From a virus (taxonomy: Duplodnaviria > Heunggongvirae > Uroviricota > Caudoviricetes), in the IMG/VR virus record IMGVR_UViG_3300031998_000020: 64,000 nt of DNA; one strand, given 5' to 3'. Of the stretch, positions 2,394-30,427 are shown one piece after another (the first letter of the stretch is position 1; the number at the start of each line of letters is the position of its first letter). Position numbers and translations under genes: made by a program. The notes beneath the pieces are model-generated. The model was not told the origin of the DNA. It did not search any database and saw only the letters and a program-made list of their open reading frames with translations.

Positions 2394-3320
2394 ATGAAAG
2401 AAAAGAAATACAAGCTTTCAGAAACTACCCTGGAATGGAATGGTCATATTCTACACAGAATAGTAAGTGTTAGCACTTTCAAACTGATAAATGGGGATAT
2501 AGTCAATGCAGGTGACGAAGGTGGATGGGTTGAGTCGGAAGGTAACCTATCCCAGGAATATAGTTGCTGGGTTGATTGTGATGCCAAGGTTTATGGCGAT
2601 GCCATGGTTTTTGAACATGCTCTAATATCCGACCATGCAGAGGTTTTTGATGATGCAAAAGTTCATTCTAGTGCACGTATTTATGGCAGTGCAGAAGTTT
2701 TCGGGGAAGCAGAGGTTAGGGATTATGCTATAATGACTGAGTCTGCACAGGTCTATGGTAAAGCTTTCATATATGAAAACGCACGAATCCGAGGGAACGC
2801 AGAGGTATTTGGACTATGTGCAATATCTGGTAATGCCATGATTGCAGGTCGGGCCAAAGTTTATGACGAGGCAACGGTGTATGGCAATGCACAGGTCTTT
2901 GGCGATGTATGCGTTTATGATGAGGCATGTATTCATGGGTATGCACAGATTTTCGGTGATGCACAGGTCTATGGTTCTGCAACGATTAGTAATTATGCCT
3001 ACATTTGTGGTAAAACTAAAATTCATGGCTGTTTGTGTATTGACGGTCCTGCCGATATTAAGGGTGATGCCGAAATAACCAGCAATGAAGACTTTATCGT
3101 TTTCAGGAACCATTTCTCATCAGGTAGATGGTTTACTTGGACACGTAGCAATGACAAGTGGAGAGTCGGCTGTTTCTACGGCACTGGTAAGGAACTCATA
3201 GAGAAGGCTTACAAGGATAGTGACTTAAAAGGTAAATACTATGAGTCCTACGTTCAATTGGTTGAGAAATTTAAAGAAATCGGGCATAATGAAGAAAAAA
3301 GAGAGGCTCTACAGGATTGA
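2394..3320 (+). CDS. Hexapeptide-repeat (left-handed beta-helix) protein, paralog 1.
   Basis: About 28 consecutive hexads of pattern A-x-(V/I)-(Y/F/H)-G-x. The N-terminal (GHILHRI..GD.GGWVES) and C-terminal (FSSGRWFTWTRSNDKWRVGCFYGTGKELI) modules are shared with the 14612 and 29345 genes. Confidence 0.8.
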   Translation: MKEKKYKLSETTLEWNGHILHRIVSVSTFKLINGDIVNAGDEGGWVESEGNLSQEYSCWVDCDAKVYGDAMVFEHALISDHAEVFDDAKVHSSARIYGSAEVFGEAEVRDYAIMTESAQVYGKAFIYENARIRGNAEVFGLCAISGNAMIAGRAKVYDEATVYGNAQVFGDVCVYDEACIHGYAQIFGDAQVYGSATISNYAYICGKTKIHGCLCIDGPADIKGDAEITSNEDFIVFRNHFSSGRWFTWTRSNDKWRVGCFYGTGKELIEKAYKDSDLKGKYYESYVQLVEKFKEIGHNEEKREALQD

Positions 3321-3723
3321 ATGCACAGAGAAGCAATTAAGATTAATTGCCAGTTGTGTTGAAGACTGTCATCGTTTTATGGGCGGTCAGGTTGGGCTAT
3401 GGAATATAACTTCCATGCTTGATACTTACCGTGAACTTAAGGATGAATTGGAAAAACTCAAACCATTGGTAACGCCTGACTTGCCATTGAATGCAAGTTA
3501 TGGCTGGACAGGTAGCAGTTGCCCTAATGAGTACCAAAGGAAGTTTATTGCAGAAACTTATCCTATTTACAGAGAGATATTACATTTTTTTGCTTGTCAA
3601 AGGGATGATAATGGCTATAACGTGTATAAGAGTGATACATTAACCTGTAAAGAGGGTGGTGAGCCTATACGAATTAAAGAAATTAAAAGAAGAAGTATTA
3701 AGCCAAGCAATGATTATGTTTAA
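3289..3723 (+). CDS. Hypothetical protein (start chosen at MKKKERLYRIE).
   Basis: Long ORF; the start is uncertain and it overlaps the end of the upstream gene. Confidence 0.4.
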   Translation: MKKKERLYRIECTEKQLRLIASCVEDCHRFMGGQVGLWNITSMLDTYRELKDELEKLKPLVTPDLPLNASYGWTGSSCPNEYQRKFIAETYPIYREILHFFACQRDDNGYNVYKSDTLTCKEGGEPIRIKEIKRRSIKPSNDYV

Positions 3724-4078
3724 AATGATTTTCTCCATAGTAGCTATCATTATCGTAGTGATAGGCATCCGTCTCATGTATCTGATGTATCAATTCGAGA
3801 AGATACTAAAACGCAGTTGTCCAGACGATGATGGCATGAAGGATTCGGAAATGTGGAGACAGAAGGAGCAGGAAATACTCAAGAGGGACAACTACAGATG
3901 TAAGTATTGTGGTGGTAACTATAAGCTGAAAGTATATAGGAAATGCCATGAATATTATACCAGTAGGTTGGTTAAATTCCCTTGGGAATATTCAGACGAT
4001 TCTTATGTAACCGTCTGTGAGGATTGCTATAAGCTATCCAAAGAGGTCAAGGCATGGCTTCCACATCCATTAATATAA
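3710..4078 (+). CDS. Membrane-anchored protein with a Cys-rich C-terminus (CKYCGG...C..H...CEDC).
   Basis: N-terminal hydrophobic helix (FSIVAIIIVVIGIRLMYLMY). Cys/His cluster suggests Zn binding. ATGATTATGTTTAA start/stop overlap with the upstream gene. Confidence 0.45.
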   Translation: MIMFKMIFSIVAIIIVVIGIRLMYLMYQFEKILKRSCPDDDGMKDSEMWRQKEQEILKRDNYRCKYCGGNYKLKVYRKCHEYYTSRLVKFPWEYSDDSYVTVCEDCYKLSKEVKAWLPHPLI

Positions 4079-4374
4079 AATTACATTGTTATGAGTAAAG
4101 ATATAGCTTTTCATGATTATCACGACATATATGATATGAGGTATCATATGGGTGACTGGGAGGTAATCAATATAGAGACACTTTCTAATGGTTATTTTCG
4201 TGTTTGGCATTATGTTGAAGATTAAATCAAAATATACCAAGAAGCAAGTATTCAACAAATTTTATGATACTTGCAAGTTTGTAATTGAACCAAGCAAGGA
4301 TGGCAAGGGAGAAGGGGTAATCTTCGCTCCTTTCCTATTGCAGGATTGTGATAAAAACAAATGATTGCTTAGTT

Positions 4375-4770
4375 ATGGAGATTAAAGAAGTATACGTATC
4401 TTACGATGTGGCGAAGCTTTTATATGAAAGAGGATTTTACGAGCCCTGTGATATGTACTACAAGATGTCGTGTAAAAGCGATGAGCCAGAAGAGGTGCTG
4501 TGGGAAGAATTGAACTATGGGCAAGAAAGATATATTAAGGCTCCGACACACCAAATGGCAACTGACTGGCTTAGAGTAAGGCATGGGATATTCATATGTA
4601 TTACTTATGAGCCTGAACCTGGTGATAAGTTCGAGTGGCATGCTCTGATACGCAAAGATGGTAAAACAATAAAGTTTACTGACGGAATAAGAATTTCAGA
4701 TTATCACAGGCTTCTTGACCATGCCATCCGAGATGTTGTCGAGGGATGTATAGCTGTAAACATTGAATAA
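4375..4770 (+). CDS. Hypothetical protein, distant SKKLAEIL-family-like N-terminus (AKLLYERGFYEPCDMYYK).
   Basis: ORF with the first in-frame ATG at 4375. Weak resemblance to SKKLAEIL...ADMYYRD. Confidence 0.4.
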   Translation: MEIKEVYVSYDVAKLLYERGFYEPCDMYYKMSCKSDEPEEVLWEELNYGQERYIKAPTHQMATDWLRVRHGIFICITYEPEPGDKFEWHALIRKDGKTIKFTDGIRISDYHRLLDHAIRDVVEGCIAVNIE

Positions 4771-4815
4771 TTGTTAAAATATTTGGTGTTTTCAAATATT
4801 ATTTGTACCTTTGCA
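4770..4815 (+). promoter_or_regulatory. Bacteroidota-type promoter (TTTG 4782, TACCTTTG 4806).
   Basis: ttgttaaaatatttggtg ... TAccTTTG cassette. Confidence 0.65.
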
Positions 4816-4841
4816 TCCGTAACATAAATTATAAACAGGAA

Positions 4842-5711
4842 ATGATAAAATCAGTTGAAATAACAGATAATAAAAAGGCTACTTTAACGTACCTCCATAA
4901 TATAGAGGCATTTGCCAATGGTGCAAAGTTCAAATTCAAGCCAGGTGTGAATATCATTGTCGGAGAGAACGGCAGTGGTAAATCTACGTTGATTAACCTT
5001 ATTAGGGATTACACTCTCTGTAAAGACAGTATGGAAACTCATGTTCCTAATGTGCGTGAGCAGTTTGGTGTCCTTAAATTCCCGAATCTGTGGGGTAATA
5101 AGAGGTTTAATGAATCCGAAGGCTTCAACGACGGAGTCAAGGTAAAGGCTGATTACAAGGGTAAAGTTTTCAGGTTGATGTTTGATGACATTCAAAGGAA
5201 TGGGCATACTTTTGAAGAGAAAATCGAGAATTACAGCCTTCTGATGGACATGTCCTCAGCTTCAACAGGAGAGAAAATGATTACTGCATTGAGCTATTTA
5301 TTCAACTTCATGTATGGCAGGACGGATTATTTCTTCCCCATCAAAGAACTGGAAAAAATCCAAGAAAGTTCAAATGACCTTTGGTCGGAAAGAATCAAAC
5401 AGCTTCTTGATTATTACAAGAAGAATAGTATCAAGATTTCAAAGAAGAACTATGAATATACCGTTCTTATGGATGAGCCAGACAGGAATCTTGACATATA
5501 CCACATAAAAGAGTTATACGGCATACTGAGTGAGCGAAAGAAGCAAACACAGTTGATTACTGTTATACATAATCCTTTGCTTATCTATAAGCTGACCAAG
5601 CTTCCGCAGAGCAAGAAGGTAAACTTCGTAGAATTAACACCCAACTATATTGATACCATTAAGGAGTTCTATAAGTGGGCTGACAACAAGAGAATTTACA
5701 CTAAAATATAA
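4842..5711 (+). CDS. Small ABC/AAA_21-type ATPase (Walker A GENGSGKST; D-loop LMDEPDRNLD).
   Basis: P-loop VNIIVGENGSGKSTLINLI and DEP...LD motif. The first ATG after the promoter is at 4842. Confidence 0.7.
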   Translation: MIKSVEITDNKKATLTYLHNIEAFANGAKFKFKPGVNIIVGENGSGKSTLINLIRDYTLCKDSMETHVPNVREQFGVLKFPNLWGNKRFNESEGFNDGVKVKADYKGKVFRLMFDDIQRNGHTFEEKIENYSLLMDMSSASTGEKMITALSYLFNFMYGRTDYFFPIKELEKIQESSNDLWSERIKQLLDYYKKNSIKISKKNYEYTVLMDEPDRNLDIYHIKELYGILSERKKQTQLITVIHNPLLIYKLTKLPQSKKVNFVELTPNYIDTIKEFYKWADNKRIYTKI

Positions 5712-5715
5712 AAAC

Positions 5716-6096
5716 ATGACAAAGAAAGATTTAGCAATAAAGGCATTCAAGAATCAACTAGAGTTGATTCTTGAACTGTATCCCGATGTCAGGGACATGA
5801 TGTATGAGAATGAGGAGTCAATTACGTTCCATAATGATATGAATGGTAGATTGACATTAAAATTCCTACCTTCTGGTAAGACAGAAGTCGAGTGTTTTTT
5901 GCAGACCAGTCCAGGCTTTGAAATCTTTACTGTCGATGAGGATTTTAATGTCTGTGAGGAGAAATACAAACAATATGAAGGATACGCTAAACGTCTAATT
6001 GTAAACGCCATGCTTGAATGGCATGAATGCCAAGACATAATAAAAAGGGTCTTTGATAGTTACCGTAGCCTTAAATACTTAGCAGAAGAAGAGTAA
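5716..6096 (+). CDS. Hypothetical protein.
   Basis: ORF immediately downstream of the ATPase; start MTKKDLAIKAF. Confidence 0.45.
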   Translation: MTKKDLAIKAFKNQLELILELYPDVRDMMYENEESITFHNDMNGRLTLKFLPSGKTEVECFLQTSPGFEIFTVDEDFNVCEEKYKQYEGYAKRLIVNAMLEWHECQDIIKRVFDSYRSLKYLAEEE

Positions 6097-6183
6097 TGAT
6101 AAGAGTGGCATTAGAGATAATTGGCTATTATCTCCTTTTTGGGGGCATAGCATATTGTATAATCTCATATTTTGACAAAGAAA

Positions 6184-6474
6184 ATGAATAAAACAATTTT
6201 AATATTACTCTCAATATTTGTATTGGGTTCTTGTACGAGAGTTAAAATTGATAACCCAGGGAATAAAGAAGAGATTGAAAATTTTAAACAACAAGTGCAG
6301 AGAGCCCAAGATAGGGGTGGCCTAAAATATGATGATTTAATTAAAGAATTTGAGTACAAAGGTCATCAATACATTTGGTTTGAACAGTCACTTCGACAGG
6401 GTTACGCTGGTTATGGATTTGCTGGTGTAGTTCACAATCCAGATTGTAAGTGTTTTAAAAAAGTGGAGGAATAA
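6184..6474 (+). CDS. Lipoprotein (signal peptide plus LGSC lipobox).
   Basis: MNKTILILLSIFVLGSC... Confidence 0.55.
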   Translation: MNKTILILLSIFVLGSCTRVKIDNPGNKEEIENFKQQVQRAQDRGGLKYDDLIKEFEYKGHQYIWFEQSLRQGYAGYGFAGVVHNPDCKCFKKVEE

Positions 6475-6477
6475 GTT

Positions 6478-6669: not shown

Positions 6670-6672
6670 GTT

Positions 6673-7229: not shown

Positions 7230-7230
7230 T

Positions 7231-10132: not shown

Positions 10133-10657
10133 ATGAATAAAGATATAATAAATCTTGGAAAAGAACTTGCTTTCTTGCTTCGTCATGACAAGGAAGCATT
10201 CAGTAAAGGTTTGATAGACCATAACGGATGGCGTAATGTATCTGAGCTATTGAGTCTTGGCTATACACAAGAGACACTTGACGAGATAGTTGAGACCAAT
10301 GACAAGAAACGCTATGAATACAATCAAGACAAAAGCAAGATTAGAGCCCGACAAGGCCATTCTATTCCTGTTGATGTAGAATTAAAGGAAACTGTTCCAC
10401 CAGACATTTTGTATCATGGAACTGCAACACGATTCCTCGATTCAATCAATAAAAGTGGACTATTGCCGAAAGACAGGCTTTATGTCCATCTATCACCAGA
10501 TTTCGAGACTGCTATAAAAGTCGGCTCAAGACATGGCAAGCCAACAGTGATAACAATCGACTGTCAAAAGATGGTTGCTGATGGGCACAAGTTCTATTTG
10601 TCAAACAACGGAGTTTGGCTTACGGGTCCAATCGAGCCAAAATATTTTATAAAATAA
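10133..10657 (+). CDS. kptA: RNA 2'-phosphotransferase Tpt1/KptA.
   Basis: Near motif-by-motif match to KptA: LAFLLRH, DKKRYEY, IRARQGHS, YHGTATRFLDSINKSGL, LYVHLSPDFETAIKVGSRHGKPTVITI, NNGVWLT. Confidence 0.9.
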   Translation: MNKDIINLGKELAFLLRHDKEAFSKGLIDHNGWRNVSELLSLGYTQETLDEIVETNDKKRYEYNQDKSKIRARQGHSIPVDVELKETVPPDILYHGTATRFLDSINKSGLLPKDRLYVHLSPDFETAIKVGSRHGKPTVITIDCQKMVADGHKFYLSNNGVWLTGPIEPKYFIK

Positions 10658-12059: not shown

Positions 12060-12524
12060 ATGAGAAAGTATAGAGGTTATTCAGAAGTTTTGCATGCATG
12101 GCTTTACGGCGATGCCGTGGCAGTTGCGGACAGTGTTGCTATTTGCAAACCAACCGACTTTGAATTTGATGGACACCATATCAGACAGATTGCTGATGGG
12201 CCATTGTATGTTAACGAATCGTCTGTAGGTGAATTTATCGGTAAGAAAGATATCAATGGCAAAGAGATTTACCTTGGTGATATTGTGGCACAGACTTATA
12301 AGGAGTACAATGGTCAGATAACACCTGACGTTGGCGAAGTTCGTTATGACGAAGTGAATGCAAGGTTTTACATTAGCAAAAACACGAAATACGGAGAGAA
12401 AAAGTATCCGTTTAGGGATAGTGTGATTAACAAAGATGGTAATGCCACTATTTGCCTGACACCTCAATACGAGGTTCTTGGCAATGTCTACGAAAACTCA
12501 GAAATATTAGAAACAATAAATTAA
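12060..12524 (+). CDS. YopX-domain protein.
   Basis: WLYGD...GEFIGKKDINGKEIYLGDIV matches the YopX core (TGLKDKNGKEIYEGDI). Confidence 0.7.
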   Translation: MRKYRGYSEVLHAWLYGDAVAVADSVAICKPTDFEFDGHHIRQIADGPLYVNESSVGEFIGKKDINGKEIYLGDIVAQTYKEYNGQITPDVGEVRYDEVNARFYISKNTKYGEKKYPFRDSVINKDGNATICLTPQYEVLGNVYENSEILETIN

Positions 12525-13104: not shown

Positions 13105-14268
13105 ATGGAACTTTTTTGTTATATATTCCCATTTATAGCTGGTGGCATACTCTTTGCCTTGTGTTTTAATCGGGCAAAAGAGAGAGGTGTCCTATTGGGG
13201 CAGATAGGTGGGGTTATCCTCTTTTCTTGCTTAGCAACATTAGGCATTAAGTCCATAATGATACATAGCAACGAAAACGACACTGAATATCTTGGTGGCT
13301 ATATAACCAAAATCACTCATTACGACGAATGGGACGAATGGATAGAACAGACGTGTACCAGAGAAGTTCCTGATGGTGAGGACGAGGATGGCCATACTAA
13401 ATACCGTACTGAAACATATGATTGCTCCTATAGGGATGTCCATCCAGAACGTTGGAAATATACCAACAATCATGGTTATGAGGAATACTTTTGGAGCGAA
13501 AAAGAATTCTTGGATGCTATGCGTGAACTCGGAAATCCCCCAATGGTTTTCCGAGACATGCATAGAGATTACTACCGCATTGACGGTGATGCCCAAGATT
13601 ATTTCTATGACGGTAAAGTCGAACACGTAAGGGCATTAACAGATTCACACTCGTATAAGAATAAGCTAATCAATTCCAAGTCTATATTCAAATATGAGGA
13701 GATTAGCCCAGAAGAGGCCCGTAAGTTGGGATTGTTTGACTACCCTGAGATAAAGTCTTACGACCAAGAGGTTGTTTTGGGTATTGATGTGTCCTATATC
13801 ACGGGAAAGAAATTCAAATACATCAATGCCATCTATGGCTCGCCAAAACAATTCAGAGTATACATATTGGCCTTCAAGAATAAGCCATATAGTATCTCGG
13901 AAAAACAGAAGGCATATTGGCAAGGTGGAAACAAGAATGAGTTTGTTGTATGCCTGGGCTATGATGCCAAGACCAGAAAAATCAACTGGTGTAATGCATT
14001 CTCCTGGTCCGACAAACCTACGCTTGAAGTAGCAACAAAAAGGTTCTTTCGAGAGCATGCTCATGTGGCATATTTAGGGGATTATGCAGACTGGTTGCCC
14101 AAGCACTTAAATCTCTGGAAACGTAAAGAATTCAAAGATTTTGACTACATCGAAAACACCCTGAGCCCCATTCAGTCAATGTGGTTGGTAATCCTTACAA
14201 TTATAATAAATTGGGTGTTATGTGGCATTATTTTCGTTATGGCAACTGAGGATTATCGACGAAATTGA
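13105..14268 (+). CDS. Membrane protein (N-terminal 2 TM, C-terminal TM), unknown function.
   Basis: 387-aa ORF with hydrophobic termini. Confidence 0.55.
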   Translation: MELFCYIFPFIAGGILFALCFNRAKERGVLLGQIGGVILFSCLATLGIKSIMIHSNENDTEYLGGYITKITHYDEWDEWIEQTCTREVPDGEDEDGHTKYRTETYDCSYRDVHPERWKYTNNHGYEEYFWSEKEFLDAMRELGNPPMVFRDMHRDYYRIDGDAQDYFYDGKVEHVRALTDSHSYKNKLINSKSIFKYEEISPEEARKLGLFDYPEIKSYDQEVVLGIDVSYITGKKFKYINAIYGSPKQFRVYILAFKNKPYSISEKQKAYWQGGNKNEFVVCLGYDAKTRKINWCNAFSWSDKPTLEVATKRFFREHAHVAYLGDYADWLPKHLNLWKRKEFKDFDYIENTLSPIQSMWLVILTIIINWVLCGIIFVMATEDYRRN

Positions 14269-14308
14269 TACTAATTATCCTTGTAAATCAGGGAGAAATC
14301 GTATCGCA

Positions 14309-14340
14309 AAAACAGTGCAATTCTTGCATTTTTGCGTACA
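14309..14340 (+). terminator. Possible terminator-like hairpin (CGCAAAAA...TTTTTGCG with an inner TGCAA/TTGCA stem).
   Basis: Nested inverted repeat; no clean U-tract after it. Confidence 0.3.
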
Positions 14341-14537
14341 ATTCGTTCTACACCGCAATTGTGTTTAAAAAATGAGTAATTCTGACACTATTTTAGGCTA
14401 TTTTTAAGCTCTATGTGGCTCTTAATTAGTGTTTTGGTACAATAATACCATTCATGATTTTTAACGGGTAATAGGGCTGATTTCCTGGCCTATCGTCATT
14501 CAATACATTGCGTTGTAATAAATATACTTTTAACGTT

Positions 14538-14588
14538 AATTTTTGTTAAGAAATTTGGTACTTTAAAAATCTTTTCTTATCTTTGCAA
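14538..14588 (+). promoter_or_regulatory. Bacteroidota-type promoter (TTTG 14554; TATCTTTG 14578).
   Basis: ttgttaagaaatttggtac ... TAtcTTTG. Confidence 0.65.
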
Positions 14589-14611
14589 TCAGAATGTTAA
14601 ATAAGCAAACA

Positions 14612-15418
14612 ATGGAGTCAGTAAAGAAATACACACTCACGAATGAAACTTTTAAATTTGAGGGACATTTGCTTCACCGAATTCAAGCAGTGGCCAATTT
14701 TGGCGATGTCAAAGCTGGAGACCTTGGTGGGTGGATTGAATCACAGGTCAATCTTTCCCAATATGGTGATTGCTGGGTTTATAACGAAGCCAAGGTCTAT
14801 GGCCATGCTGTGGTCAGTGGTAATGCAAGGGTTAGTGGTGATGCGCAGGTCTATGAAAATGCAAGGGTCCATGGTGAGGCATACGTCTGTGATTGTTCAG
14901 AGGTCTTTGGAAATGCATGTGTCGCTGAGTATGCACGGGTATATAATAATGCTAAAGTCTTTGGGTATGCACTGATTTATGATAATGCACAAGTTCATGG
15001 TGATGCATGTGTCAGTGGTGGTTCAAGGATTTTTGGTGAGGCATCTGTCTATGATAATGCACAAATTTATGGTAGTGCCAATGTATGTGATGAAGTAGAT
15101 GTATATGGTAATGCAAAGGTTCATAATGATGTGCTTGTGTGGGGACGTGCAGACATATGTGGTGATGCCGAAGTACAAGCGATTGAGGATTATATTGTCT
15201 TCAAAAACAGCTTCTCATCTGGCCGATGGTTTACATGGACACGTAGTAACGACATGTGGAAGGTTGGCTGCTTCTATGGTACGGGCAAGGAACTTATAAA
15301 GAAGGCTTACGAAGATAGTGAGGAGAAAGGAGATTATTACAAACTTTTTGTCGAATTGGTTGAAAAAGACAAAGAAGTTCGTCGGAAATACGATAGAATA
15401 GACACATTAGCATTTTAA
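14612..15418 (+). CDS. Hexapeptide-repeat (left-handed beta-helix) protein, paralog 2.
   Basis: Same N-terminal and C-terminal modules as the 2394 gene, with a hexad array. Start set at MESVKKYTL by alignment with its paralogs and by promoter position. Confidence 0.8.
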   Translation: MESVKKYTLTNETFKFEGHLLHRIQAVANFGDVKAGDLGGWIESQVNLSQYGDCWVYNEAKVYGHAVVSGNARVSGDAQVYENARVHGEAYVCDCSEVFGNACVAEYARVYNNAKVFGYALIYDNAQVHGDACVSGGSRIFGEASVYDNAQIYGSANVCDEVDVYGNAKVHNDVLVWGRADICGDAEVQAIEDYIVFKNSFSSGRWFTWTRSNDMWKVGCFYGTGKELIKKAYEDSEEKGDYYKLFVELVEKDKEVRRKYDRIDTLAF

Positions 15419-15430
15419 AATGGTACGATT

Positions 15431-16759
15431 ATGGAAAAGTTGACATTTCAAGACATAAGAGATAGGGGTTTACTCTTATACGAATATATAAGGGGTTCTC
15501 AGGCTTATGGTATGGCTACTCCTACTTCCGACGAGGATAGGGGAGGTATCTTTATTGCCCCTCAAGAACAGCTTTTAGGCTTAGGCTTTGACTATCAGGA
15601 CGAGGTATCAGACGATAAGCATGATACCTGTTGGTGGGAGTTGGGTAAGTTCATGAATCTGGCCTTGAAGTGTAGCCCTATCGTATTGGAGGCGTTCTTT
15701 ATTCCAGAGGATAAGGTGTTGTACGTTCATCCTGTCTTTGCCGAGATACTAAAGCATAGGGAAGCATTCTTGACAAAGCAATGCTTTAAGCCGTTTAGCA
15801 ATTATGCTATTTCCCAGATTGAGAAGGCAAGGGGCCAGAACAAGAAGATAATGTGGGATATCAATGAGATGACAAGAAAGACTCCATTGGACTACACATA
15901 CACCTTCTGTAATCAAGGCAGCAAGAACATCCAGCCTTGGCTTGAGGAAAGAGGCCTTGACCAGAGGAACATTGGTCTGGTCAATATCCCTAACATGAAG
16001 GATGTCTATGGGGCTTATTATGACTTCGGACAGCATATCAGGCTTAGCGGAATCACAGAAGAATATTTTTGTAATCCAGAAGTCAGGGATGATAAATTCA
16101 TCAACTATTGTTGGGACCAGTTCAGTTATAAGTATAACACATCAACAGGTCGCTCATATGCTGATATAATGCATGAGATGTGGAATGATATTTCACACCC
16201 TAAAGGCGGTCATTGTGGTATTGTCTCCCCAAGTGAAGTCTCTAATGAAATACGATACAGCTCTCATGTAACCTTTTCGCCAGTACAGAAGGGTGATGCA
16301 CCTATATGTTGGGTAGTGTATAACCAGGGTGCATATGAGAACCATTGCAGGAAGTTCAAAGAATATGAGACGTGGAAGAAGAATCGAAACAAGGCACGTT
16401 ATGAGAACAACCTTGAAGGACTGGAAAAGGAGAACAAGGATAAGTTTTACGATTCTAAAAACTTCTCACATTGTTTCCGTCTTATCAATACTGCCATCGA
16501 GATTGCCAGGGGTGAGGGCATGAAGGTTTGCCGTAAGGGTATTGATGCTGATTTCTTGCTTGATGTAAGGAACAGGAAATACACCTATGACGAGCTTATC
16601 AAGCTGGTGGACGAGAAGAAGGTTGAGATGGATGAGGCAATGAAGAATTCAACATTGCCAGAGACCATTGATATAGACTTTGTCAATAACCTCCTGCTTA
16701 GAGCAAGGTCTGATTTTAAGTATGAAAACTTAAAGCTTACATATGGCAAAACCAGATAA
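15431..16759 (+). CDS. Nucleotidyltransferase-fold protein (pol-beta superfamily; GS...D.D motif).
   Basis: IRGSQAYGMATPTSDEDRGGIFIA fits hG[GS]-x9-13-[DE]h[DE]h. Confidence 0.6.
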   Translation: MEKLTFQDIRDRGLLLYEYIRGSQAYGMATPTSDEDRGGIFIAPQEQLLGLGFDYQDEVSDDKHDTCWWELGKFMNLALKCSPIVLEAFFIPEDKVLYVHPVFAEILKHREAFLTKQCFKPFSNYAISQIEKARGQNKKIMWDINEMTRKTPLDYTYTFCNQGSKNIQPWLEERGLDQRNIGLVNIPNMKDVYGAYYDFGQHIRLSGITEEYFCNPEVRDDKFINYCWDQFSYKYNTSTGRSYADIMHEMWNDISHPKGGHCGIVSPSEVSNEIRYSSHVTFSPVQKGDAPICWVVYNQGAYENHCRKFKEYETWKKNRNKARYENNLEGLEKENKDKFYDSKNFSHCFRLINTAIEIARGEGMKVCRKGIDADFLLDVRNRKYTYDELIKLVDEKKVEMDEAMKNSTLPETIDIDFVNNLLLRARSDFKYENLKLTYGKTR

Positions 16760-17090
16760 TTGTTATCCTGTATTTCAGGTGGACATATGCTTTGAATCAT
16801 ATTCTATGGATTATGTCTTGGTAGGTGCAATGTCTAAGAAGGATTTAATTGCACATATTAAAGATGTGTTTCCTGACAACCAATATACCTTGGATGAGTA
16901 TGATGTCAGTGAGGACGGTGACTATCCCGACAGGAAGGTTGGGGATGTGATTACTCAGCCACGGTTTACTGAAAAACAGTTGAAGGAAATCTGTAGACGA
17001 GACACACGTTTCTCAAGAATCAAGCAAATTAAGCACCTTTATACAGACAAACCCTACAAGGAATTGACAGGGTTCGGGTATTTTGAATAA
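16743..17090 (+). CDS. Hypothetical protein.
   Basis: ORF overlapping the upstream stop; an alternative start exists at 16806. Confidence 0.4.
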   Translation: MAKPDNCYPVFQVDICFESYSMDYVLVGAMSKKDLIAHIKDVFPDNQYTLDEYDVSEDGDYPDRKVGDVITQPRFTEKQLKEICRRDTRFSRIKQIKHLYTDKPYKELTGFGYFE

Positions 17091-21989: not shown

Positions 21990-22050
21990 ACTGCTCGTAG
22001 TTTTTTAAATCATTTTTATCGTTTAATTTTCAAATTTGTTACTTACAACA

Positions 22051-23859
22051 ATGGTAGAAGTAAAGCTTAACAACAGTAACAAGAATCATTTCTATGGTAT
22101 GAGGGAGTGTCTCTATCTCTTTCAGAACCTCAATACCAATATCACGGAAGCTATGCTTGACAGAGCATGGGCAGAAGTAAAGGATGACAAGCAGAAGAGG
22201 GAGCTCTTTTTCTCCCTTATCTTCTCTATAGGTGATATTACTGCACGTCAGCACAACATCTTCAAGGGTGTTAAGATGGATAATGGCGGTAATGCAAACA
22301 GAGATTCTTTCTGGACTATCTTTAATTGGATAAAGGACAGAAATTGGGCTCAGTTCGTAAAGTTCCTCCATGCAGGTCTCTTCAATGAGTATCAGTGTTT
22401 CGACACACTGTTCCGTTCACGAGTCAAGACATGTAGCGGTAGGGTAGTTAAGGTGTATGACATCTTTGCTGACCAGACATACCGTAATGAGCTTGCCAAC
22501 TACGTGTACTCTATTGTTAATGGTAATAATACCTTTAACAAGCACCTTGTGGCTAAGTTCTTGACACTTCCTCGTCCATCAAAGAGAACAGGTCATACCA
22601 AGATGCTTGATGAGACAATGGCCGTTATGAAGAATAAGGCCAAGTTCCTTACCAAGCTGTCAGACATGGTAGGTTGGGAGTATGATGGCTACAACTTCAT
22701 CGGCTATCGTAAGTGGAGAAAGGAATATAACACTAACCTTGAGTCCGTTCTTTTCTCATCAGGTGCTATTAATGGTTTTACTCAGGACCAGTTCTTCAAG
22801 TGGCTTGAGCAACTGCCATCACAGGCAAGGTTCAGAGTCAGGAACAAGGTATCCTTCTCTAAGAAGGAAGATGATACTCTCAAGTGGCCAGTTCTTAAGG
22901 AGTGGTATAACAAGTGGGAGAATCACAAGGAGGAAATGCAAGCTGAACAGAGAAAGCTTGAGGAGAAGGTTCGACAGGGTGGAGCCTCTGAGGAAGACCT
23001 CAAGAAGCTTGCCAAGGTCAAGAAGGAGGCCAAGATTAACACTGGTGCTACAAACTTCAAGGAAATCTATGAGTCCATCCTTAGCGGTAAGGCAGATGCT
23101 CTTGCAGTTGAAAGCTTTATCCAGAACAAGGTGAACCTTCCTTATAATAGCCTGGTTATTATTGACGATTCTGGCTCAATGCGTGGGGCACCATTCAACT
23201 TTGCCACATTCCTGGCAACTGTATGCTTGATGAAGAACCCTGATGACGAGGCACGAAACCTCGTAGGCTTCTTTGCTAACGATTCACATTGGCATGCTTA
23301 CATTGATTCAAAAAAGCAGCCAAGCCCAAATAGTATCGTTAGAACTGGAAACATCAAGTGTGAGGCAGAACCTCTCATAGACCCTACACTTAGCTTTATG
23401 GAGAACTATAAGCGATTTGATTCTTTTGCTCACTCTGTGTTCAGTTGTCGTGGTACACATATTGATTCAATCGCAAGAGGTCTGAATGAAGCTTGTAAGA
23501 GAAATCCTCAGATGCTTGATGCACTCAAGAACTATCCAGTTTGGACCATTGTATCAGATGGTGATTTTAACAATCTGTATAGTCCAGAAGCATCTTTGAA
23601 TGACCTCATGAGACAGTGCCAGGAGTACTTTGGCTTCAAGCCTTTTATCGTAGGTATCGCTGTTGATATGTATAATAGCACTCCTAAGTATGAAAGGTTT
23701 AGCGGTATAGAGAATTTCCTCTACATACCAGCCAACCCTACTCTCATTGAGCAGTTCCTTACAAATTTCAGGGATATGGACACATTCGATGTCTATGCAC
23801 CACTACAGGGTTTGTACAGGACTAACAGGTATGAACTGGTTCGCCAGAACGTGATTTAA
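22051..23859 (+). CDS. Large protein with a vWA/MIDAS motif (IIDDSGSM).
   Basis: LVIIDDSGSMRGAPF is a classic DxSxS MIDAS motif. About 600 aa, otherwise unknown. Confidence 0.65.
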   Translation: MVEVKLNNSNKNHFYGMRECLYLFQNLNTNITEAMLDRAWAEVKDDKQKRELFFSLIFSIGDITARQHNIFKGVKMDNGGNANRDSFWTIFNWIKDRNWAQFVKFLHAGLFNEYQCFDTLFRSRVKTCSGRVVKVYDIFADQTYRNELANYVYSIVNGNNTFNKHLVAKFLTLPRPSKRTGHTKMLDETMAVMKNKAKFLTKLSDMVGWEYDGYNFIGYRKWRKEYNTNLESVLFSSGAINGFTQDQFFKWLEQLPSQARFRVRNKVSFSKKEDDTLKWPVLKEWYNKWENHKEEMQAEQRKLEEKVRQGGASEEDLKKLAKVKKEAKINTGATNFKEIYESILSGKADALAVESFIQNKVNLPYNSLVIIDDSGSMRGAPFNFATFLATVCLMKNPDDEARNLVGFFANDSHWHAYIDSKKQPSPNSIVRTGNIKCEAEPLIDPTLSFMENYKRFDSFAHSVFSCRGTHIDSIARGLNEACKRNPQMLDALKNYPVWTIVSDGDFNNLYSPEASLNDLMRQCQEYFGFKPFIVGIAVDMYNSTPKYERFSGIENFLYIPANPTLIEQFLTNFRDMDTFDVYAPLQGLYRTNRYELVRQNVI

Positions 23860-23917: not shown

Positions 23918-23965
23918 AGTTACGAAAATATTTGGTAGTATCAGATTTTTTTAGTAACTTTGCAA
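23918..23965 (+). promoter_or_regulatory. Bacteroidota-type promoter driving the noncoding locus (TTTG 23931; TAACTTTG 23955).
   Basis: aaatatttggtag ... TAacTTTG. Confidence 0.6.
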
Positions 23966-24138: not shown

Positions 24139-24252
24139 AAGGAGATGGTGTAATGGTAGCATGCGTTAGCTTAGTGACACTATGTCACTTACAATATCAA
24201 TGCTTTTTGATTTTGGGTATCCGTGGTGTGGGTTCGAATCCTGCTCTCCTTG
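24139..24252 (+). ncRNA. Atypical 114-nt tRNA-like element. It has a perfect 7-bp acceptor AAGGAGA/TCTCCTT, U8, a D-arm GTGT-AATGGTA-GCAT and a T-arm GTGGG-TTCGAAT-CCTGC. It carries about 38 nt more than a standard tRNA between the D-arm and the T-arm.
   Basis: Perfect acceptor complementarity flanking canonical D and T arms. An internal hairpin AGTGA-CACTATG-TCACT would present a CUA triplet in a 7-nt loop, but position 33 is A, not U. Confidence 0.4.
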
Positions 24253-24409: not shown

Positions 24410-24411
24410 AA

Positions 24412-24460
24412 ATACTGTTAATAAATTTGGCAATGTCAGATTTTATCCGTACCTTTGTAT
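24412..24460 (+). promoter_or_regulatory. Bacteroidota-type promoter (TTTG 24426; TACCTTTG 24450).
   Basis: ctgttaataaatttggcaa ... TAccTTTG. Confidence 0.65.
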
Positions 24461-24484
24461 CATAATTTAAAACTATATTATAGA

Positions 24485-24796: not shown

Positions 24797-24802
24797 AGTA
24801 CT

Positions 24803-25324
24803 ATGAGGAAATTAAAAGATATAAAATTCAGAGGTAAAACCACTTTCGATTTCACGTGGGTCTATGGTGACTTAATGTATGACAAATTCGATAGTGCTTA
24901 TATACACAAACCCAATTTTAATCAAAATGGGGTTGACCCTGACACGGTAGGTCAATTCACAGGCTTGTATGACAAGGACGGCAAAGAAATATATGAAGGT
25001 GACATCATAGAATTCTACGAAATCGAAAGTTATTGCATTAATCCTGATTGTGAACCTCACCTGATAGGTTATGGAAACCGTCTGGTTAAGCATGCATGTC
25101 AGGTTATGTTTGACAACGGAATGTTTTGTGTTGACCTAGAAGGTGATTGTAGAATTAGACCGCTTTTGTATTGTGGTTTACTGGAGGGTGATATAGAAGA
25201 CTTAAAAGATTGGGTAGAAAATGATGATTATTTTGACACTGATGGGTATGAAATAGACGAATCTATCCTCGGATTCAAAGTGGTCGGAAACATCTTCGAT
25301 AATCCCGACTTAGATTACGTGTAA
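24803..25324 (+). CDS. YopX-domain protein.
   Basis: WVYGDL...VGQFTGLYDKDGKEIYEGDIIEF. Confidence 0.8.
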   Translation: MRKLKDIKFRGKTTFDFTWVYGDLMYDKFDSAYIHKPNFNQNGVDPDTVGQFTGLYDKDGKEIYEGDIIEFYEIESYCINPDCEPHLIGYGNRLVKHACQVMFDNGMFCVDLEGDCRIRPLLYCGLLEGDIEDLKDWVENDDYFDTDGYEIDESILGFKVVGNIFDNPDLDYV

Positions 25325-25327
25325 ATT

Positions 25328-26245: not shown

Positions 26246-26439
26246 GAAAGTATTATTATGTATTGCAGTTTGTATCAGGTGATACAGCATTAGTGATGGG
26301 CATAGACGAAGTAGAAGCCATCAGGCTTATTCGTAATAGAGGCTGTACCCAAGAGATAGTTTCAAGTAAGCGGTTCAAGGACCACAATGAGGCTGTTATG
26401 TATCAAAGTGAATTAATTAACAATAAAGAATCGGTATGA
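26242..26439 (+). CDS. Hypothetical protein.
   Basis: ORF overlapping its neighbours by 4 nt. Confidence 0.4.
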   Translation: MRKYYYVLQFVSGDTALVMGIDEVEAIRLIRNRGCTQEIVSSKRFKDHNEAVMYQSELINNKESV

Positions 26440-26663
26440 AAAATAGACCAGAAAATTTAGAGGATTGTAGATTAGCAAATTTAGATGATTTGTTGCTGGA
26501 ACGTTGGCTCAGACAACGAGAGAGTAAGAAGATAATTTGGGAAACCAAAGACGGTCTCCGATTGCCCATACAGGAAATGACGGACAGTCATCTCAAGAAT
26601 GCTATTGAGTGTGCCAGGAGACGGATACTCGACGATGCAATAGCTGACAGTAATTGGGTATAG
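26436..26663 (+). CDS. Hypothetical protein.
   Basis: ORF. Confidence 0.4.
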   Translation: MKNRPENLEDCRLANLDDLLLERWLRQRESKKIIWETKDGLRLPIQEMTDSHLKNAIECARRRILDDAIADSNWV

Positions 26664-26685
26664 TCTAATAACAAATATACAAAAT

Positions 26686-27309
26686 ATGGATAGACAGCAA
26701 TTCATGCAGCAAGCTGCATTAAGGCTTATTACTGGTGGCTCATCTATGAGCCCAGAAGAAGTATACAAATATACTAAGGAATTGGGTAATTTGTTTTTCC
26801 CTGTTGAAAAAGTATCTAAACCAGATGAGGCAGTTGAAACACCATTCCATCCTGGGGATATTATCTGCTACATGTATCGTTCAATTATATTTTGCGATTC
26901 TATTCAAGACGATTGTGTGACAAGTAGGTTTGAATATGATATCAAAAATGATTCTTTAGAGGTGTATGATACAGCCAGGTTGTATCTCATGAATCTTTCT
27001 AAACCTGCCGATGTTAGCCAAAGGATAAAATTCATAGAGACTTTGTATAAGCATGGCCATTGTATTGACACTGATAACAATTCCATACGTCCATTTCCAC
27101 AAGAGGGGGACATTATCACAAAGAGGGGTACTCTTTATCCTGTGTTTCAGTTAGGTAAAAAAGCAGTGGGCTGGTATGATGGCTATATGTTCACGTGTTG
27201 TGACGATGTTGCCAACAGTGGTTTCTTGACTGATAGTGACATAAGAGAAAACTATGTATTGTTTAGGCCAAAAAAACTTGGTTCAGGAGACCCTTCGAAA
27301 GGTGCGTAA
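26686..27309 (+). CDS. Hypothetical protein.
   Basis: ORF. Confidence 0.45.
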   Translation: MDRQQFMQQAALRLITGGSSMSPEEVYKYTKELGNLFFPVEKVSKPDEAVETPFHPGDIICYMYRSIIFCDSIQDDCVTSRFEYDIKNDSLEVYDTARLYLMNLSKPADVSQRIKFIETLYKHGHCIDTDNNSIRPFPQEGDIITKRGTLYPVFQLGKKAVGWYDGYMFTCCDDVANSGFLTDSDIRENYVLFRPKKLGSGDPSKGA

Positions 27310-27313
27310 ACAG

Positions 27314-27356
27314 AAAAGAGACCATTGAGAGATTAATTCCCTTGATGGTCTCTTTT
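27314..27356. terminator. Bidirectional intrinsic terminator (AAAAGAGACCAT...ATGGTCTCTTTTT).
   Basis: 12-bp inverted repeat between convergent genes. Confidence 0.7.
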
Positions 27357-27359
27357 TGC

Positions 27360-27932
27360 TTAGAACTTGTGCTGTACAATAACATCAACAGCCTCTTCCA
27401 GTGACTTTACTCGTAAGATGTTAAGACTTTTGTCATCGATATACCTATTGTATGGCGTATCAACCATTATTTTCTTGGAATGGTCTGATTCATTGAGAAT
27501 GAATTCTGGGTTGTCATCAATCAGATAGTCACCATGAACCATCCATTTATCTTTCGTAAAGCAAATATCATCATAATAAAGGTGATGACGGTCAAAGAAA
27601 TCCAATGTGAACTCCTTGTTCTGTTTGTTGAATTGCCAGGTTACGATAACAACCTTGTAACCTTTCTTATGGAGAAGGTCAAGAGCTTGTTTAACGCCAT
27701 CGAAAGGCTTAGAAATACACCTAAAAACACCATCTGCATGGTCTTCAAAAAAGAACTGCCATGGTGTACAATTCAACTGTTCCTTGACCTTGGGGAATGA
27801 CTTGTTAATGTCATAGTCGGTGATTGATTCAGGGCTGATATGTTCCTTGAACTGCCATTGATAGATTTGGCACATTCCACCTATCATGTCCCTTATGACA
27901 CCATCCACATCTACTTTAACTATTTTACTCAT
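27360..27932 (-). CDS. 5'(3')-deoxyribonucleotidase-like HAD hydrolase (NT5C family).
   Basis: VKVDVDGVIRDMIGGM (HAD motif I DxDGV), GVKQALDLL and YLIDDNP align with NT5C-family motifs. Confidence 0.7.
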   Translation of the reverse strand: MSKIVKVDVDGVIRDMIGGMCQIYQWQFKEHISPESITDYDINKSFPKVKEQLNCTPWQFFFEDHADGVFRCISKPFDGVKQALDLLHKKGYKVVIVTWQFNKQNKEFTLDFFDRHHLYYDDICFTKDKWMVHGDYLIDDNPEFILNESDHSKKIMVDTPYNRYIDDKSLNILRVKSLEEAVDVIVQHKF

Positions 27933-28191
27933 AAGATTCTATATTATGCTTTTGACTTCTTTCTTTTTTATGGGAAAGTTTCTTTTTGGCTGCCTCCCAT
28001 TTTCTGGCTCCCTTGGTTAACATATTTCCGCTACCAATCTTTGCCTTAATCATTTTCTTAACATTGAACTCACTTGGATTACCAGGAGTCCAAAAATCGG
28101 CATAGCCCTCTTTGGCTCTCATTTCCTTGAGATAATCGACCAAGTTCTGTCTCAGCTTTTTCTTTTGGTAGAATTTCTGATTTCTTTGCAT
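27925..28191 (-). CDS. Small basic protein.
   Basis: Lys/Arg-rich ORF downstream of a minus-strand promoter motif. Confidence 0.45.
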   Translation of the reverse strand: MQRNQKFYQKKKLRQNLVDYLKEMRAKEGYADFWTPGNPSEFNVKKMIKAKIGSGNMLTKGARKWEAAKKKLSHKKERSQKHNIESYE

Positions 28192-28207
28192 GATTCTTTA
28201 TTTTTGT

Positions 28208-28250
28208 AGTGCAAAGATACTAAAAAAGAATTTAACAGGCAAAAAAATTA
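28208..28250 (-). promoter_or_regulatory. Putative minus-strand promoter (TTTG - 20 nt - TATCTTTG on the reverse complement).
   Basis: Reverse complement reads ...ttttTTGcctgttaaattcttttttagTAtcTTTGcactac. Confidence 0.45.
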
Positions 28251-28257
28251 TGTTAAT

Positions 28258-28303
28258 TTTTATTAATTAATTTGGTAGATTAAAATATTATCATTACTTT
28301 TGC
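28258..28303 (+). promoter_or_regulatory. Bacteroidota-type promoter (TTTG 28271; TACTTTTG 28295).
   Basis: ttaattaatttggtag ... TActTTTG. Confidence 0.55.
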
Positions 28304-28349
28304 AAACGGAAAGTTAAATCAAACAAACAAAATGTTTAATTAAAAGTTA

Positions 28350-28829
28350 ATGACTATGTCACAAAAAATAGACTATTTTTGCTACGGCACAGAGACAGGA
28401 GAAGGGGTAATTGCAGCCCTTAAGGACAAGGGTGCCCAAAACTTCGAATGTCATAAAGGCAAAGATTCAACAACTGGCCCAGTAATATACTATACCGAAT
28501 ATTTCGGGGAGACAGGTATGTGCATTAAGTGTTTGAGGGCGGTAGACAATCAACAACTCTTTGGGATAATAACCAAATATTACACCAAGCTTGAGCCCGT
28601 CCCTACACCTTCTTACAGAGTACCCCGTGGTGACCACTATTATTTTTTAAGTGGCTCATTCACTAAGATTCGCATCGTCGAAGACGTAGACCTAAGAACG
28701 GAGAATGATGATTTTCGTGCTCAAACAGGTAATTATTTTTATTCACAAGAAGAAGGCTTGAAGGCTAAAGAAGCTATTGGTCAAATATTTGCACAGAATA
28801 TAGCAAAGTTAATAAATTATGGAAAATAA
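28350..28829 (+). CDS. Hypothetical protein with a C-terminal GNYF module.
   Basis: Paralog of 28819..29325 (CYGTETGEGVIAAL / CWATLTGENVIHQL; GNYFYSQEEGLKAKEAIGQIF / GNYFATKEEAVECQKRIIDIF). Confidence 0.55.
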   Translation: MTMSQKIDYFCYGTETGEGVIAALKDKGAQNFECHKGKDSTTGPVIYYTEYFGETGMCIKCLRAVDNQQLFGIITKYYTKLEPVPTPSYRVPRGDHYYFLSGSFTKIRIVEDVDLRTENDDFRAQTGNYFYSQEEGLKAKEAIGQIFAQNIAKLINYGK

Positions 28830-29325
28830 GAAGAAAAATAAATTCGGTTATAACCCAGTCTATTGTTGGGCCACCTTAACAGGTGAGAATGTCATACATC
28901 AGCTTGAATTGTGTGGAGGAAAGAATGTTTGGCTTTATGACGGTAAACCAATACGGGTTGATGGCGAATGCCAGAGGACTCTCTACTACCTATTACCAGA
29001 CGGTACTATTGAATGCTTAACCAATGAATCCCAAGATGAGCCTAAGTACCAAATGATTATGGCTTTGTACACAGAAGTCCAGCCAAAAATAGCACGTTGG
29101 AGAGCAAAAATGTATGAGGAATATTACACAATTGCCATGGATTCGGAAAAATGTAAAATTAAGGTTGTGTGTATCAGGGATGAATATAAAGATTTCGATG
29201 ACAAACAGTACAAGTTTGGTAACTACTTTGCAACTAAGGAAGAGGCTGTTGAATGTCAAAAACGCATCATTGACATATTCACTCAACATGTTGTCAAAGA
29301 AGCACGAAAAGCCAAAGGCAAATAG
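28819..29325 (+). CDS. Hypothetical protein with a C-terminal GNYF module (paralog).
   Basis: See the 28350 gene. Confidence 0.55.
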   Translation: MENKKKNKFGYNPVYCWATLTGENVIHQLELCGGKNVWLYDGKPIRVDGECQRTLYYLLPDGTIECLTNESQDEPKYQMIMALYTEVQPKIARWRAKMYEEYYTIAMDSEKCKIKVVCIRDEYKDFDDKQYKFGNYFATKEEAVECQKRIIDIFTQHVVKEARKAKGK

Positions 29326-29344
29326 AAACATATAATTTCAAAAT

Positions 29345-30427
29345 ATGACAAAGAAAAAATACGAATTAACGGGTGAAGTCCTGAAACATGCTGGTCGTGT
29401 ACTTTATAGAATTAAGGCCGTGTCAAGTTTTGGTGATGTCAAAGAAGGGGACCTTGGCGGTTGGGTAGAGTCGGAAGACAATCTATCCCAAGAGGGCAAA
29501 TGCTGGCTCTATGGCGAATCCAAAGCCTATGAAAGGGCAATGGTTAGTGGTGATGCTGCCTTGTTTGGTGAAGCTGAGGTTTATAATCTTGCACAAGTAA
29601 ATGACCAGGCACGAGTTTTTGACAATGCAAAGGTCTATGGCTGCTCAAAGGTCTATGAAAATGCAAAAATTTGTGACTTTGCGGAGATATGTGACTATGC
29701 TCGTATATCTGGCGATGCAATGATTAGTGGTCATGCCAAAGTTTACCATTGGGCTCAGGTTTGGGAAAACGCACATGTTTATGGGGATGCCTCTGTTTAT
29801 GACGAGGCACGTGTACGAGGAGATGCAAGGATTTTTGGAAAGGCGAAAATTCATGAACATGCGTTTATATACGGCCAGGCAAATGTATATGGAGAGGCTG
29901 AGGTTTTAGGTTGTGCACAGGCGTTTGAAAATGCAGATGTATATGATAATGCACTGCTTGATAATGATGCCAAGGTCTATGGGAATGCAAAAATACGTGG
30001 TGAGAGCCGTATCTATGGGAAGGCTCGAATTGATGGTGATGCAGATGTTTGTGACAGTAATGTTTATGGACATGCATGCATAACCGACCATGCAGTCATT
30101 ATAGATTCCACAATTTATTTTTCTGTCAACATTAGTGGCCATGCACATATCACGAAAGCTGTTGTTCAAAGAGATTCCGATTATATGGTATTCCGTAATT
30201 CATGGAGTAGTGGAAGGTGGTTTACATGGACAAGAAGCAACAATATGTGGAATGTCGGCTGTTTCTTTGGTACTGGCAAGGAGTTAATAAAAAAGGCATA
30301 CAGGGATAACGCTCTTAAAGGACAGTGTTATGAGTCAGTTGTCAAGCTTGTTGACAAAATTGACTACCTGCAAAAGCCAAACAAGACCTGGTATGACCGT
30401 TTAATGTATTTTATAAGAAAATTATGA
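29345..30427 (+). CDS. Hexapeptide-repeat (left-handed beta-helix) protein, paralog 3 (longest).
   Basis: Same N-terminal and C-terminal modules as the 2394 gene, with about 35 hexads. Confidence 0.8.
   Translation: MTKKKYELTGEVLKHAGRVLYRIKAVSSFGDVKEGDLGGWVESEDNLSQEGKCWLYGESKAYERAMVSGDAALFGEAEVYNLAQVNDQARVFDNAKVYGCSKVYENAKICDFAEICDYARISGDAMISGHAKVYHWAQVWENAHVYGDASVYDEARVRGDARIFGKAKIHEHAFIYGQANVYGEAEVLGCAQAFENADVYDNALLDNDAKVYGNAKIRGESRIYGKARIDGDADVCDSNVYGHACITDHAVIIDSTIYFSVNISGHAHITKAVVQRDSDYMVFRNSWSSGRWFTWTRSNNMWNVGCFFGTGKELIKKAYRDNALKGQCYESVVKLVDKIDYLQKPNKTWYDRLMYFIRKL

Follow-up and report, generated by a model that had tools for sequence, protein, structure and literature searches.

Three genes of one phage genome, built to a common plan around long arrays of hexapeptide repeats, raise the question of whether their products are enzymes, structural proteins or something else. 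The genes, designated here paralogs A, B and C, are located in the IMG/VR virus record IMGVR_UViG_3300031998_000020 (Caudoviricetes); the term "window" is used below for the whole stretch of this record that was analysed, 64,000 nucleotides in length. The results place the three proteins in the YdcK/PHROG 7964/5070 family, which is already catalogued, with an uncharacterised function, and to which the window adds a three-copy example and no new principle. The analysis provides a clean domain definition, comprising a YdcK cap, a solenoid quantised in hexads and an orphan conserved C-terminal module. As to the role of these proteins, we tentatively favour that of a non-enzymatic accessory binding protein, made early in infection.

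Architecture of the three paralogous proteins

Paralog A occupies positions 2394..3320 (308 aa), paralog B positions 14612..15418 (268 aa) and paralog C positions 29345..30427 (360 aa), all on the plus strand; the open reading frames (ORFs) and their translations confirm the three genes that had been proposed from the sequence alone (hereafter, the original prediction). An alternative start of paralog B exists at 14594, and the start at 14612 is favoured by the JGI gene call and by the position of the promoter motif described below. The protein encoded by paralog B exactly matches P0001, encoded on a JGI contig of 129,947 bp, and Logan contigs encode a protein identical to that of paralog A, next to the same neighbouring genes. 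A self-tblastn search showed 40–47% pairwise identity between the three proteins over their full length and no additional copy anywhere in the 64 kb of the window.

The common plan consists of an N-terminal module, a solenoid composed of hexads and a C-terminal module (C-module). The N-module, also referred to as the N-cap, contains 49–54 residues, with NLSQ at its end; the C-module contains 76–82 residues, starts with D[YF]xVF(K/R)N and, in all three copies, follows the pattern DYxVF(K/R)NxxSSGRWFTWTRSN(D/N)xWxVGCF(Y/F)GTGKELIxKAY. In paralog A, the N-cap is encoded by positions 2394–2555, the solenoid of 29 hexads by 2556–3089 and the C-module by 3090–3317; in paralog B, the corresponding parts are 14612–14761, 14762–15187 (23 hexads) and 15188–15415; and in paralog C, they are 29345–29491, 29492–30178 (about 37 hexads) and 30179–30424, the last of these including the C-module and a tail. 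The hexad counts make use of a family-wide rule, according to which the length of the solenoid is 6n+4 residues, and they replace the earlier estimate of 28–35 hexads per gene. The hexad consensus, tallied over 83 hexads, is [YFH]-[GDE]-[DNE]-A-x-[VI]. The arrays are uninterrupted in the general plan; in copy C, the solenoid has a one-residue register slip and the last few hexads are degenerate.

The identity between the copies decreases from the C-module (72–77%) to the N-module (59–63%) and further to the solenoid (43–49%); thus, the same two modules do bracket each array, as had been suggested, and they are better conserved than the array itself. At the DNA level, TRF found only short degenerate arrays of period 18 with 63–77% matches, which led to the rejection of recent tandem amplification and indicates that the repeats are old. 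The divergence among the three copies (60–64% in the caps) equals the divergence from homologs of unrelated phages; therefore, A, B and C are either old paralogs or separate acquisitions, and the three copies probably differ in specificity.

Nested ORFs with a length of 60 aa or more, in a different frame or on a different strand, number 3.2 per kb in these genes versus 1.7 per kb in other long ORFs, the numbers being small. This roughly twofold density agrees with the earlier view of the antisense ORFs as artefacts of repeat composition. Nested ORFs have also been annotated in public records, e.g., orf129 within orf229 of the Streptococcus thermophilus phage Sfi19.

Family assignment and predicted fold

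The Pfam model of the YdcK β-solenoid repeat, PF18836, matched paralogs A (48.3 bits) and B (36.4 bits) above its gathering threshold of 30 and paralog C (29.2 bits) just below it, and a phmmer search against the PDB aligned the N-cap and solenoid of copy B with YdcK (2F9C, E-value 7e-24). Over their full length, the proteins are clearly related to PHROG 7964, with E-values of 1e-107 for A, 6e-92 for B and 3e-108 for C, and they also match PHROG 5070 (1e-68 to 2e-85); both groups are annotated with "unknown function". At the sub-family level, the N-cap corresponds to phrog_20149 and the C-module to phrog_20532. The scores of the three proteins with the YdcK equivalog model NF040481 (91.5, 106.8 and 121.5 bits) do not reach the cut-off of 350 bits, and the match covers only model positions from about 2 to 212 of 326, i.e., the N-terminal two-thirds. 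The architecture is not new; the N-module together with the solenoid is that of the YdcK family (2F9C, 2PIG), and the whole protein is that of PHROG 7964/5070.

The family is large and crosses phyla, being found in phages and prophages of Streptococcus, Enterococcus, Clostridia and many Bacteroidales. Searches of a large protein database returned 5,792 homologs at E ≤ 1e-10, and tblastn detected relatives in 83 records of isolated phages, which included Streptococcus phages, Lactobacillus phage LfeInf, Bacillus SPO1-like phages and phages of Liberibacter, Xanthomonas and Vibrio. The names given to homologs in public records conflict with each other, and include "glycerol kinase", "acyltransferase" and "polymer-forming cytoskeletal protein". 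Two homologs, P0003 (407 aa) and P0212 (531 aa), consist of two complete cap–solenoid–C-module units fused in tandem. In Vibrio phage 1.139.B (MG592511.1), a YdcK-like solenoid gene is split into two coding sequences, and six "CRISPR spacers" have been annotated inside it, at positions 1655–1996; this array is almost certainly false, since its regular spacing fits the repeat period of 18 nt.

AlphaFold2 modelling of copy B, from a 38-sequence alignment (A1), yielded a model with a mean pLDDT of 95.4 and a pTM score of 0.89. In agreement with the expected β-helix, the predicted structure contains two-residue strands at six-residue spacing between residues 55 and 190; the strand pattern is continuous, without loop insertions in the coil, and conserved globular caps are located at both ends of the helix. 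The N-terminal cap is predicted to consist of β-hairpins, and the C-module of four short strands followed by helices 225–235 and 237–267. A Foldseek search against the PDB ranked Salmonella YdcK (2PIG and 2F9C, E-value 1.5e-9) first, followed by LpxD, LpxA and GlmU. The global TM-scores of copy B to YdcK are low (0.26–0.29), and the match should therefore be understood as local, rather than as a rigid superposition of full-length structures. The helix is presumed to be left-handed by analogy with the matched left-handed β-helix proteins LpxD, LpxA and GlmU. On the basis of the model, each of the three proteins would be a single-chain YdcK-type β-helix rod, modelled as left-handed; the idealised lengths of such rods are approximately 3.7, 4.6 and 6 nm for 23, 29 and 37 hexads, respectively.

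Conservation, length and charge of the solenoid

In alignment A1, the conserved columns of the solenoid are limited to a single Trp and to the Ala and Val/Ile positions that face the interior, and no conserved His, Asp or Glu is present in this part of the proteins. Invariant polar residues occur only in the caps, and mostly in the C-module, where they include D193, N199, S202, S203, T208, T210, S212, N213 and C220; R205 and R211 of the same module are nearly invariant.

The length of the solenoid was surveyed in 168 homologs for which it was possible to locate both caps. It ranges from 16 to 288 residues (2 to 47 hexads) and equals 6n+4 in 143 homologs, among which all three rotational phases are represented (82, 43 and 18). 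Whole-hexad steps and the occurrence of all three phases indicate that hexads are freely gained and lost, and that the angular relation of the caps is not conserved. The copy B orthologs, with identities of 80%, 63% and 57%, contain 23, 23, 20 and 18 hexads. The comparison of relatives thus supports the earlier supposition that only the number of hexads varies. Taken together, the uninterrupted coil, the variable number of hexads and the restriction of polar conservation to the caps are more readily reconciled with a structural rod than with an acyltransferase trimer, in which the site between the subunits would be fixed.

The solenoids of A, B and C carry a net charge of −12 to −15 (−15 in A), and the caps are near neutral. 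Across the family, the mean solenoid charge is −0.34 per hexad, with 93% of members being net negative; DNA is far more densely charged, and the idea of DNA mimicry is, therefore, only weakly supported.

The C-terminal module

The terminal modules were also analysed separately. As described above, the N-module corresponds to the YdcK cap; the C-module alone gave nothing meaningful in Pfam (E-values up to 10) or in a PDB profile search. No acetyltransferase domain was matched by the end modules in Pfam, NCBIfam or PDB profile searches, in line with their original description as non-acyltransferase modules. A profile of the C-module retrieved only 423 clusters (50% identity) among 1.84 billion representatives, and in these proteins the module is nearly always C-terminal, behind a solenoid, with occasional tandem fusions and extra tails.

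Among isolated phages, the C-module was found in 21 records, comprising 19 of Streptococcus phages and 2 of LfeInf, with one copy per genome and 54–70% identity. In bacterial genomes, it was found in 33 loci belonging to Streptococcus, Enterococcus, Clostridia, many Bacteroidales (Prevotella, Bacteroides, Alistipes and Paludibacteraceae) and metagenome-assembled genomes (MAGs) of Lentisphaerae and Kiritimatiellae. The predicted structures of BFVD contain similar end modules behind the solenoids of LfeInf proteins and, with weaker similarity, of proteins of Listeria, Bacillus and Staphylococcus Herelleviridae.

The fold of the C-module has a weak resemblance to the APSES/KilA-N DNA-binding domain (Mbp1, PDB code 1BM8), and an alignment built from homologs of P1 KilA was used for comparison. 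The profile–profile probability was 0.15%, which gives no support to an identification of the C-module as a KilA-N/APSES domain, and the similarity is at most one at the level of the fold. The C-module is thus a phage-specific, highly conserved orphan α/β domain.

Paralog C continues beyond this domain into an amphipathic basic tail, encoded at 30374–30424 (KTWYDRLMYFIRKL). Among 222 homologs, transmembrane-like tails were noted in two and strongly amphipathic basic ends in another two. Membrane targeting was rejected as a trait of the family, given the rarity of such ends; the tail of copy C is ambiguous. The few homologs with a transmembrane segment or an amphipathic basic end (P0014, P0152, P0183 and P0254) hint at membrane association in a minority of the family.

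Genomic context of homologs

In phage Sfi19, which infects S. thermophilus, no gene of appreciable size separates the homolog orf229 from the cro-like gene before it, and the genes encoding Gam, Sak4, helicase and SSB follow. The homolog adjoins the Erf gene in Streptococcus phages Javan318 and MissD; in Ruminococcus phage phiRM10, it precedes the Gam and Rad52 genes, and in a contig of a Clostridia MAG (L032), it adjoins the Rad52 gene. In a tblastn screen, Gam, recombinase or SSB genes were located near 9 of 49 homolog loci, mostly of Firmicutes, and in the eight loci besides L032, genes for Gam, Erf or SSB are no more than a few kb away. The homolog of the large phage LfeInf is situated beside the terminal repeat. 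Three further contexts contained only small genes of unknown function near replication functions, and the supposition of a universally conserved neighbouring gene was rejected on these grounds.

Overall, the homologs appear as an early or accessory gene found repeatedly at the head of recombination and replication modules. Genes downstream of cro are expressed early in S. thermophilus phages (PMC13575424).

Neighbouring genes and promoter motifs

Paralog A is preceded, at a distance of 27 nt, by a microbial-type PARG-like gene (1587..2366, plus strand; PF10021, E-value 5.8e-21), and the order of these two genes is the same on Logan contigs; the PARG-like gene is described here simply as a neighbour of paralog A. 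Paralog B is followed, after 13 nt, by a gene on the plus strand, 15431..16759, which encodes an RlaP-type pol-beta nucleotidyltransferase of 442 aa (PF10127, E-value 4.5e-20; PHROG 388, E-value 2e-49) and is probably co-transcribed with B. The pair is preserved in a syntenic 162-kb metagenomic contig (L015), where the ortholog of B has 18 hexads; the immediate succession of the two genes, indicated in the original prediction, is thus a conserved feature. The same prediction placed a different enzyme gene before each copy, which proved correct only for A. Upstream of B lies an ORF (13105–14268) with no match in Pfam and assigned to phrog_2087, of unknown function, and the YopX genes, one of which had been supposed to precede B, are actually located at 12060–12524 and 24803–25324. 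The two ORFs upstream of C (28350–28829 and 28819–29325) have no family match, and the "GNYF" of the supposed GNYF family is merely a local sequence string.

The window also contains genes encoding an AAA_23/SMC_N-like ATPase (4803–5711) and a Tpt1/KptA RNA 2'-phosphotransferase (10133–10657), which, with the PARG-like, two YopX and RlaP genes, make up a cluster of accessory genes related to nucleic acids and ADP-ribose, as is typical of toolkits for counter-defence or RNA repair. No structural or replication families were revealed by Pfam and PHROG searches among the 26 window ORFs scanned, and most of the large ORFs (e.g., 22036–23859 and 38233–39672) have no PHROG match. The window is, accordingly, a very dark region of accessory genes, belonging to a phage of at least 130 kb. 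A search of 50,697 isolated phage records found no nucleotide match for positions 14000–17000, and IMG/VR yielded no close relative.

The window contains 18 sites with a composite motif, TTTG-N20-TAnnTTTG, versus 0.64 expected, and 16 of the 18 are on the plus strand. The sites span positions 4782–57904, often take the form TTTGGT...TAyCTTTG and are mostly located directly upstream of ORF starts. Within the 343-bp intergenic region 14269–14611, between the ORF 13105–14268 and paralog B, a site with the sequence TTTG-N20-TAtcTTTG (14554..14585, plus strand) precedes the 14612 start of B by 26 nt. Another site on the plus strand (28271..28302) heads the unit composed of the ORFs 28350–28829 and 28819–29325 and paralog C, and further sites are found at 23931–23962 and 24426–24457. 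The motif corresponds to what we take to be the Bacteroides −33/−7 promoter consensus, and it therefore suggests a host from Bacteroidota and the transcription of many units by the host RNA polymerase; such a host is consistent with the presence of the C-module in Bacteroidales loci.

A promoter motif is also located about 180 nt upstream of a tRNA-like gene (24139–24252, plus strand), which scored 36.5 bits with the Rfam model RF00005. Its acceptor, D and T arms are normal, and 56 nt replace 13 central positions of the anticodon arm; the gene, which was not called by ARAGORN, could represent an intron-containing or otherwise aberrant tRNA.

Possible functions of the proteins

Early accessory binding proteins, the role tentatively favoured here, would be produced under the control of host-type promoters, probably at an early stage of infection. 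A conserved partner may be bound by the conserved C-module, perhaps together with the N-cap, and the acidic solenoid would serve as a rigid body, the length and surface of which are free to evolve; the three copies would then be three variants of one tool. The homologs of temperate phages are encoded directly upstream of genes for Gam and single-strand-annealing recombinases, and for this reason the partner would most likely belong to the processing of DNA ends or nucleic acids by the host or the phage, or to a host defence acting on it. A more specific suggestion assigns the proteins to a class of early phage counter-defence or host-takeover proteins that has so far gone unrecognised, in which an acidic rod of variable length is a decoy, either steric or resembling nucleic acid, and the conserved C-terminal head docks it on a host nuclease of DNA-end processing or defence, such as a RecBCD/AddAB-like or restriction-type enzyme. 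It would account for the recurrent location close to genes for Gam and recombinases, for the freedom with which repeat number and surface evolve, and for the several copies present in large phages, and, if true, three copies would mean three specificities; early and accessory regions of the kind that harbour the family are the usual place of anti-defence and host-takeover genes. Nevertheless, we consider this particular suggestion rather unlikely.

Several observations weigh against a role in early binding. There is no single neighbour common to the homologs across lineages, and early timing in the phage studied here derives solely from the promoter motifs and the analogy with other phages. 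PADLOC found no match for the three paralogs, the nucleotidyltransferase, the PARG-like protein and the product of the ORF upstream of B, and we know of no anti-defence homology for the family. A literature search found no functional study of YdcK, PF18836, the PHROG families or Sfi19 orf229. It is equally conceivable that the invariant polar cluster of the C-module forms a catalytic or small-ligand site, and the left-handed β-helix superfamily consists mostly of trimeric acyltransferases, whose inter-subunit sites would not be apparent from residue conservation when the monomer alone is considered.

The last points lead to the possibility of genuine hexapeptide-repeat acyl- or acetyltransferases, which would form trimers, hold acyl-CoA in the inter-subunit grooves and modify a host or phage molecule, with the C-module supplying acceptor-binding or catalytic residues. 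Weak matches to models of LpxA, LpxD, GlmU and NeuD were indeed recorded, Foldseek TM-scores to LpxD and LpxA reached 0.42, and the order of an N-terminal domain, a helix and a C-terminal helix resembles LpxD; furthermore, the Ser-Ser-Gly-Arg and Thr-Arg-Ser-Asn motifs and a Cys are invariant in the C-module, and some public records name homologs "putative acyltransferase". However, the scores with the hexapeptide repeat model PF00132 (20.0 bits for A, 16.1 for B and 26.5 for C) are all under the cut-off of 27, and those with the NCBIfam enzyme models are all below 45 bits, far under the cut-offs of 160–718. The solenoid has neither conserved His, Asp or Glu nor loop insertions, and arrays of 2–47 hexads in any rotational phase are hard to square with a fixed inter-subunit active site; YdcK itself, on which no literature was found, has no demonstrated activity. 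An acyltransferase role is therefore judged unlikely.

Two structural roles, close to the likeness to phage fibres and bactofilin polymers proposed in the original prediction, seem more distant. Bactofilin-like cytoskeletal proteins would form filaments inside the infected cell by end-to-end polymerisation, and NCBI pipelines have named several phage homologs "polymer-forming cytoskeletal protein". The bactofilin model PF04519 (threshold 27.9 bits) matched copy A with 33.8 bits, a score attributable to the shared repeat composition of 18 residues per turn, whereas B (20.2 bits) and C (24.4 bits) remained under the threshold. In the model of copy B, conserved globular caps cover both ends of the helix, sequence homology points to the crystal structure of YdcK, and the top 50 Foldseek matches in the PDB, composed of YdcK and left-handed-helix enzymes, include no bactofilin structure, which makes filament formation very unlikely. 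Still less can be said for virion proteins, i.e., fibres, spikes or baseplate accessory rods of differing length. β-Helices are common in fibres, and copy A had very weak matches to PHROGs annotated as "baseplate wedge subunit" and "structural protein" (E-values 6e-4 to 1e-2), but these matches span only repeat stretches. The three genes are scattered amid small accessory genes, with no structural gene recognised among the 26 ORFs scanned; the homologs of temperate phages belong to a module of cro, recombination and replication genes and not to a tail module, and the predicted fold is a single-chain helix of the YdcK type rather than the triple-stranded helix of fibres. A place in the virion thus appears extremely improbable.

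Comparison with known systems

LpxD, LpxA and GlmU represent the same fold class, and the domain order of LpxD (N-terminal domain, helix, C-terminal helix) is similar, but the phage proteins differ from them in having no family-level sequence match, no conserved catalytic residues, no loop insertions and a variable number of repeats. A functional analogy only can be drawn with the pentapeptide-repeat DNA mimics MfpA and Qnr, which are capped, acidic β-solenoid rods of roughly duplex-like width that act by binding rather than catalysis; the repeat and handedness of these proteins are different, and the charge of the phage solenoids is only about −1 per turn.

The relationship with YdcK of Salmonella and E. 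coli is much closer. The N-caps are homologous (residues 18–55 of copy B versus 23–60 of YdcK, including GGW...NLSQ..CW.Y), and the solenoid consists of the same type of hexads; no function is known for YdcK or for the phage proteins. The differences lie in the C-terminal part, where the phage proteins possess another, phage-specific module, and in the widely variable number of hexads.

The members of PHROG 7964/5070, such as Sfi19 orf229 and LfeInf_002, have the same architecture as A, B and C, share 42–52% identity with them and are annotated as hypothetical. The isolated phages of these groups infect Streptococcus or Lactobacillus and contain one copy with this C-module, whereas the phage studied here, with its presumed Bacteroidota host, contains three such copies in 28 kb. 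The homologs identified include genetically tractable ones, first of all orf229 of the S. thermophilus phage, which makes the family experimentally approachable.

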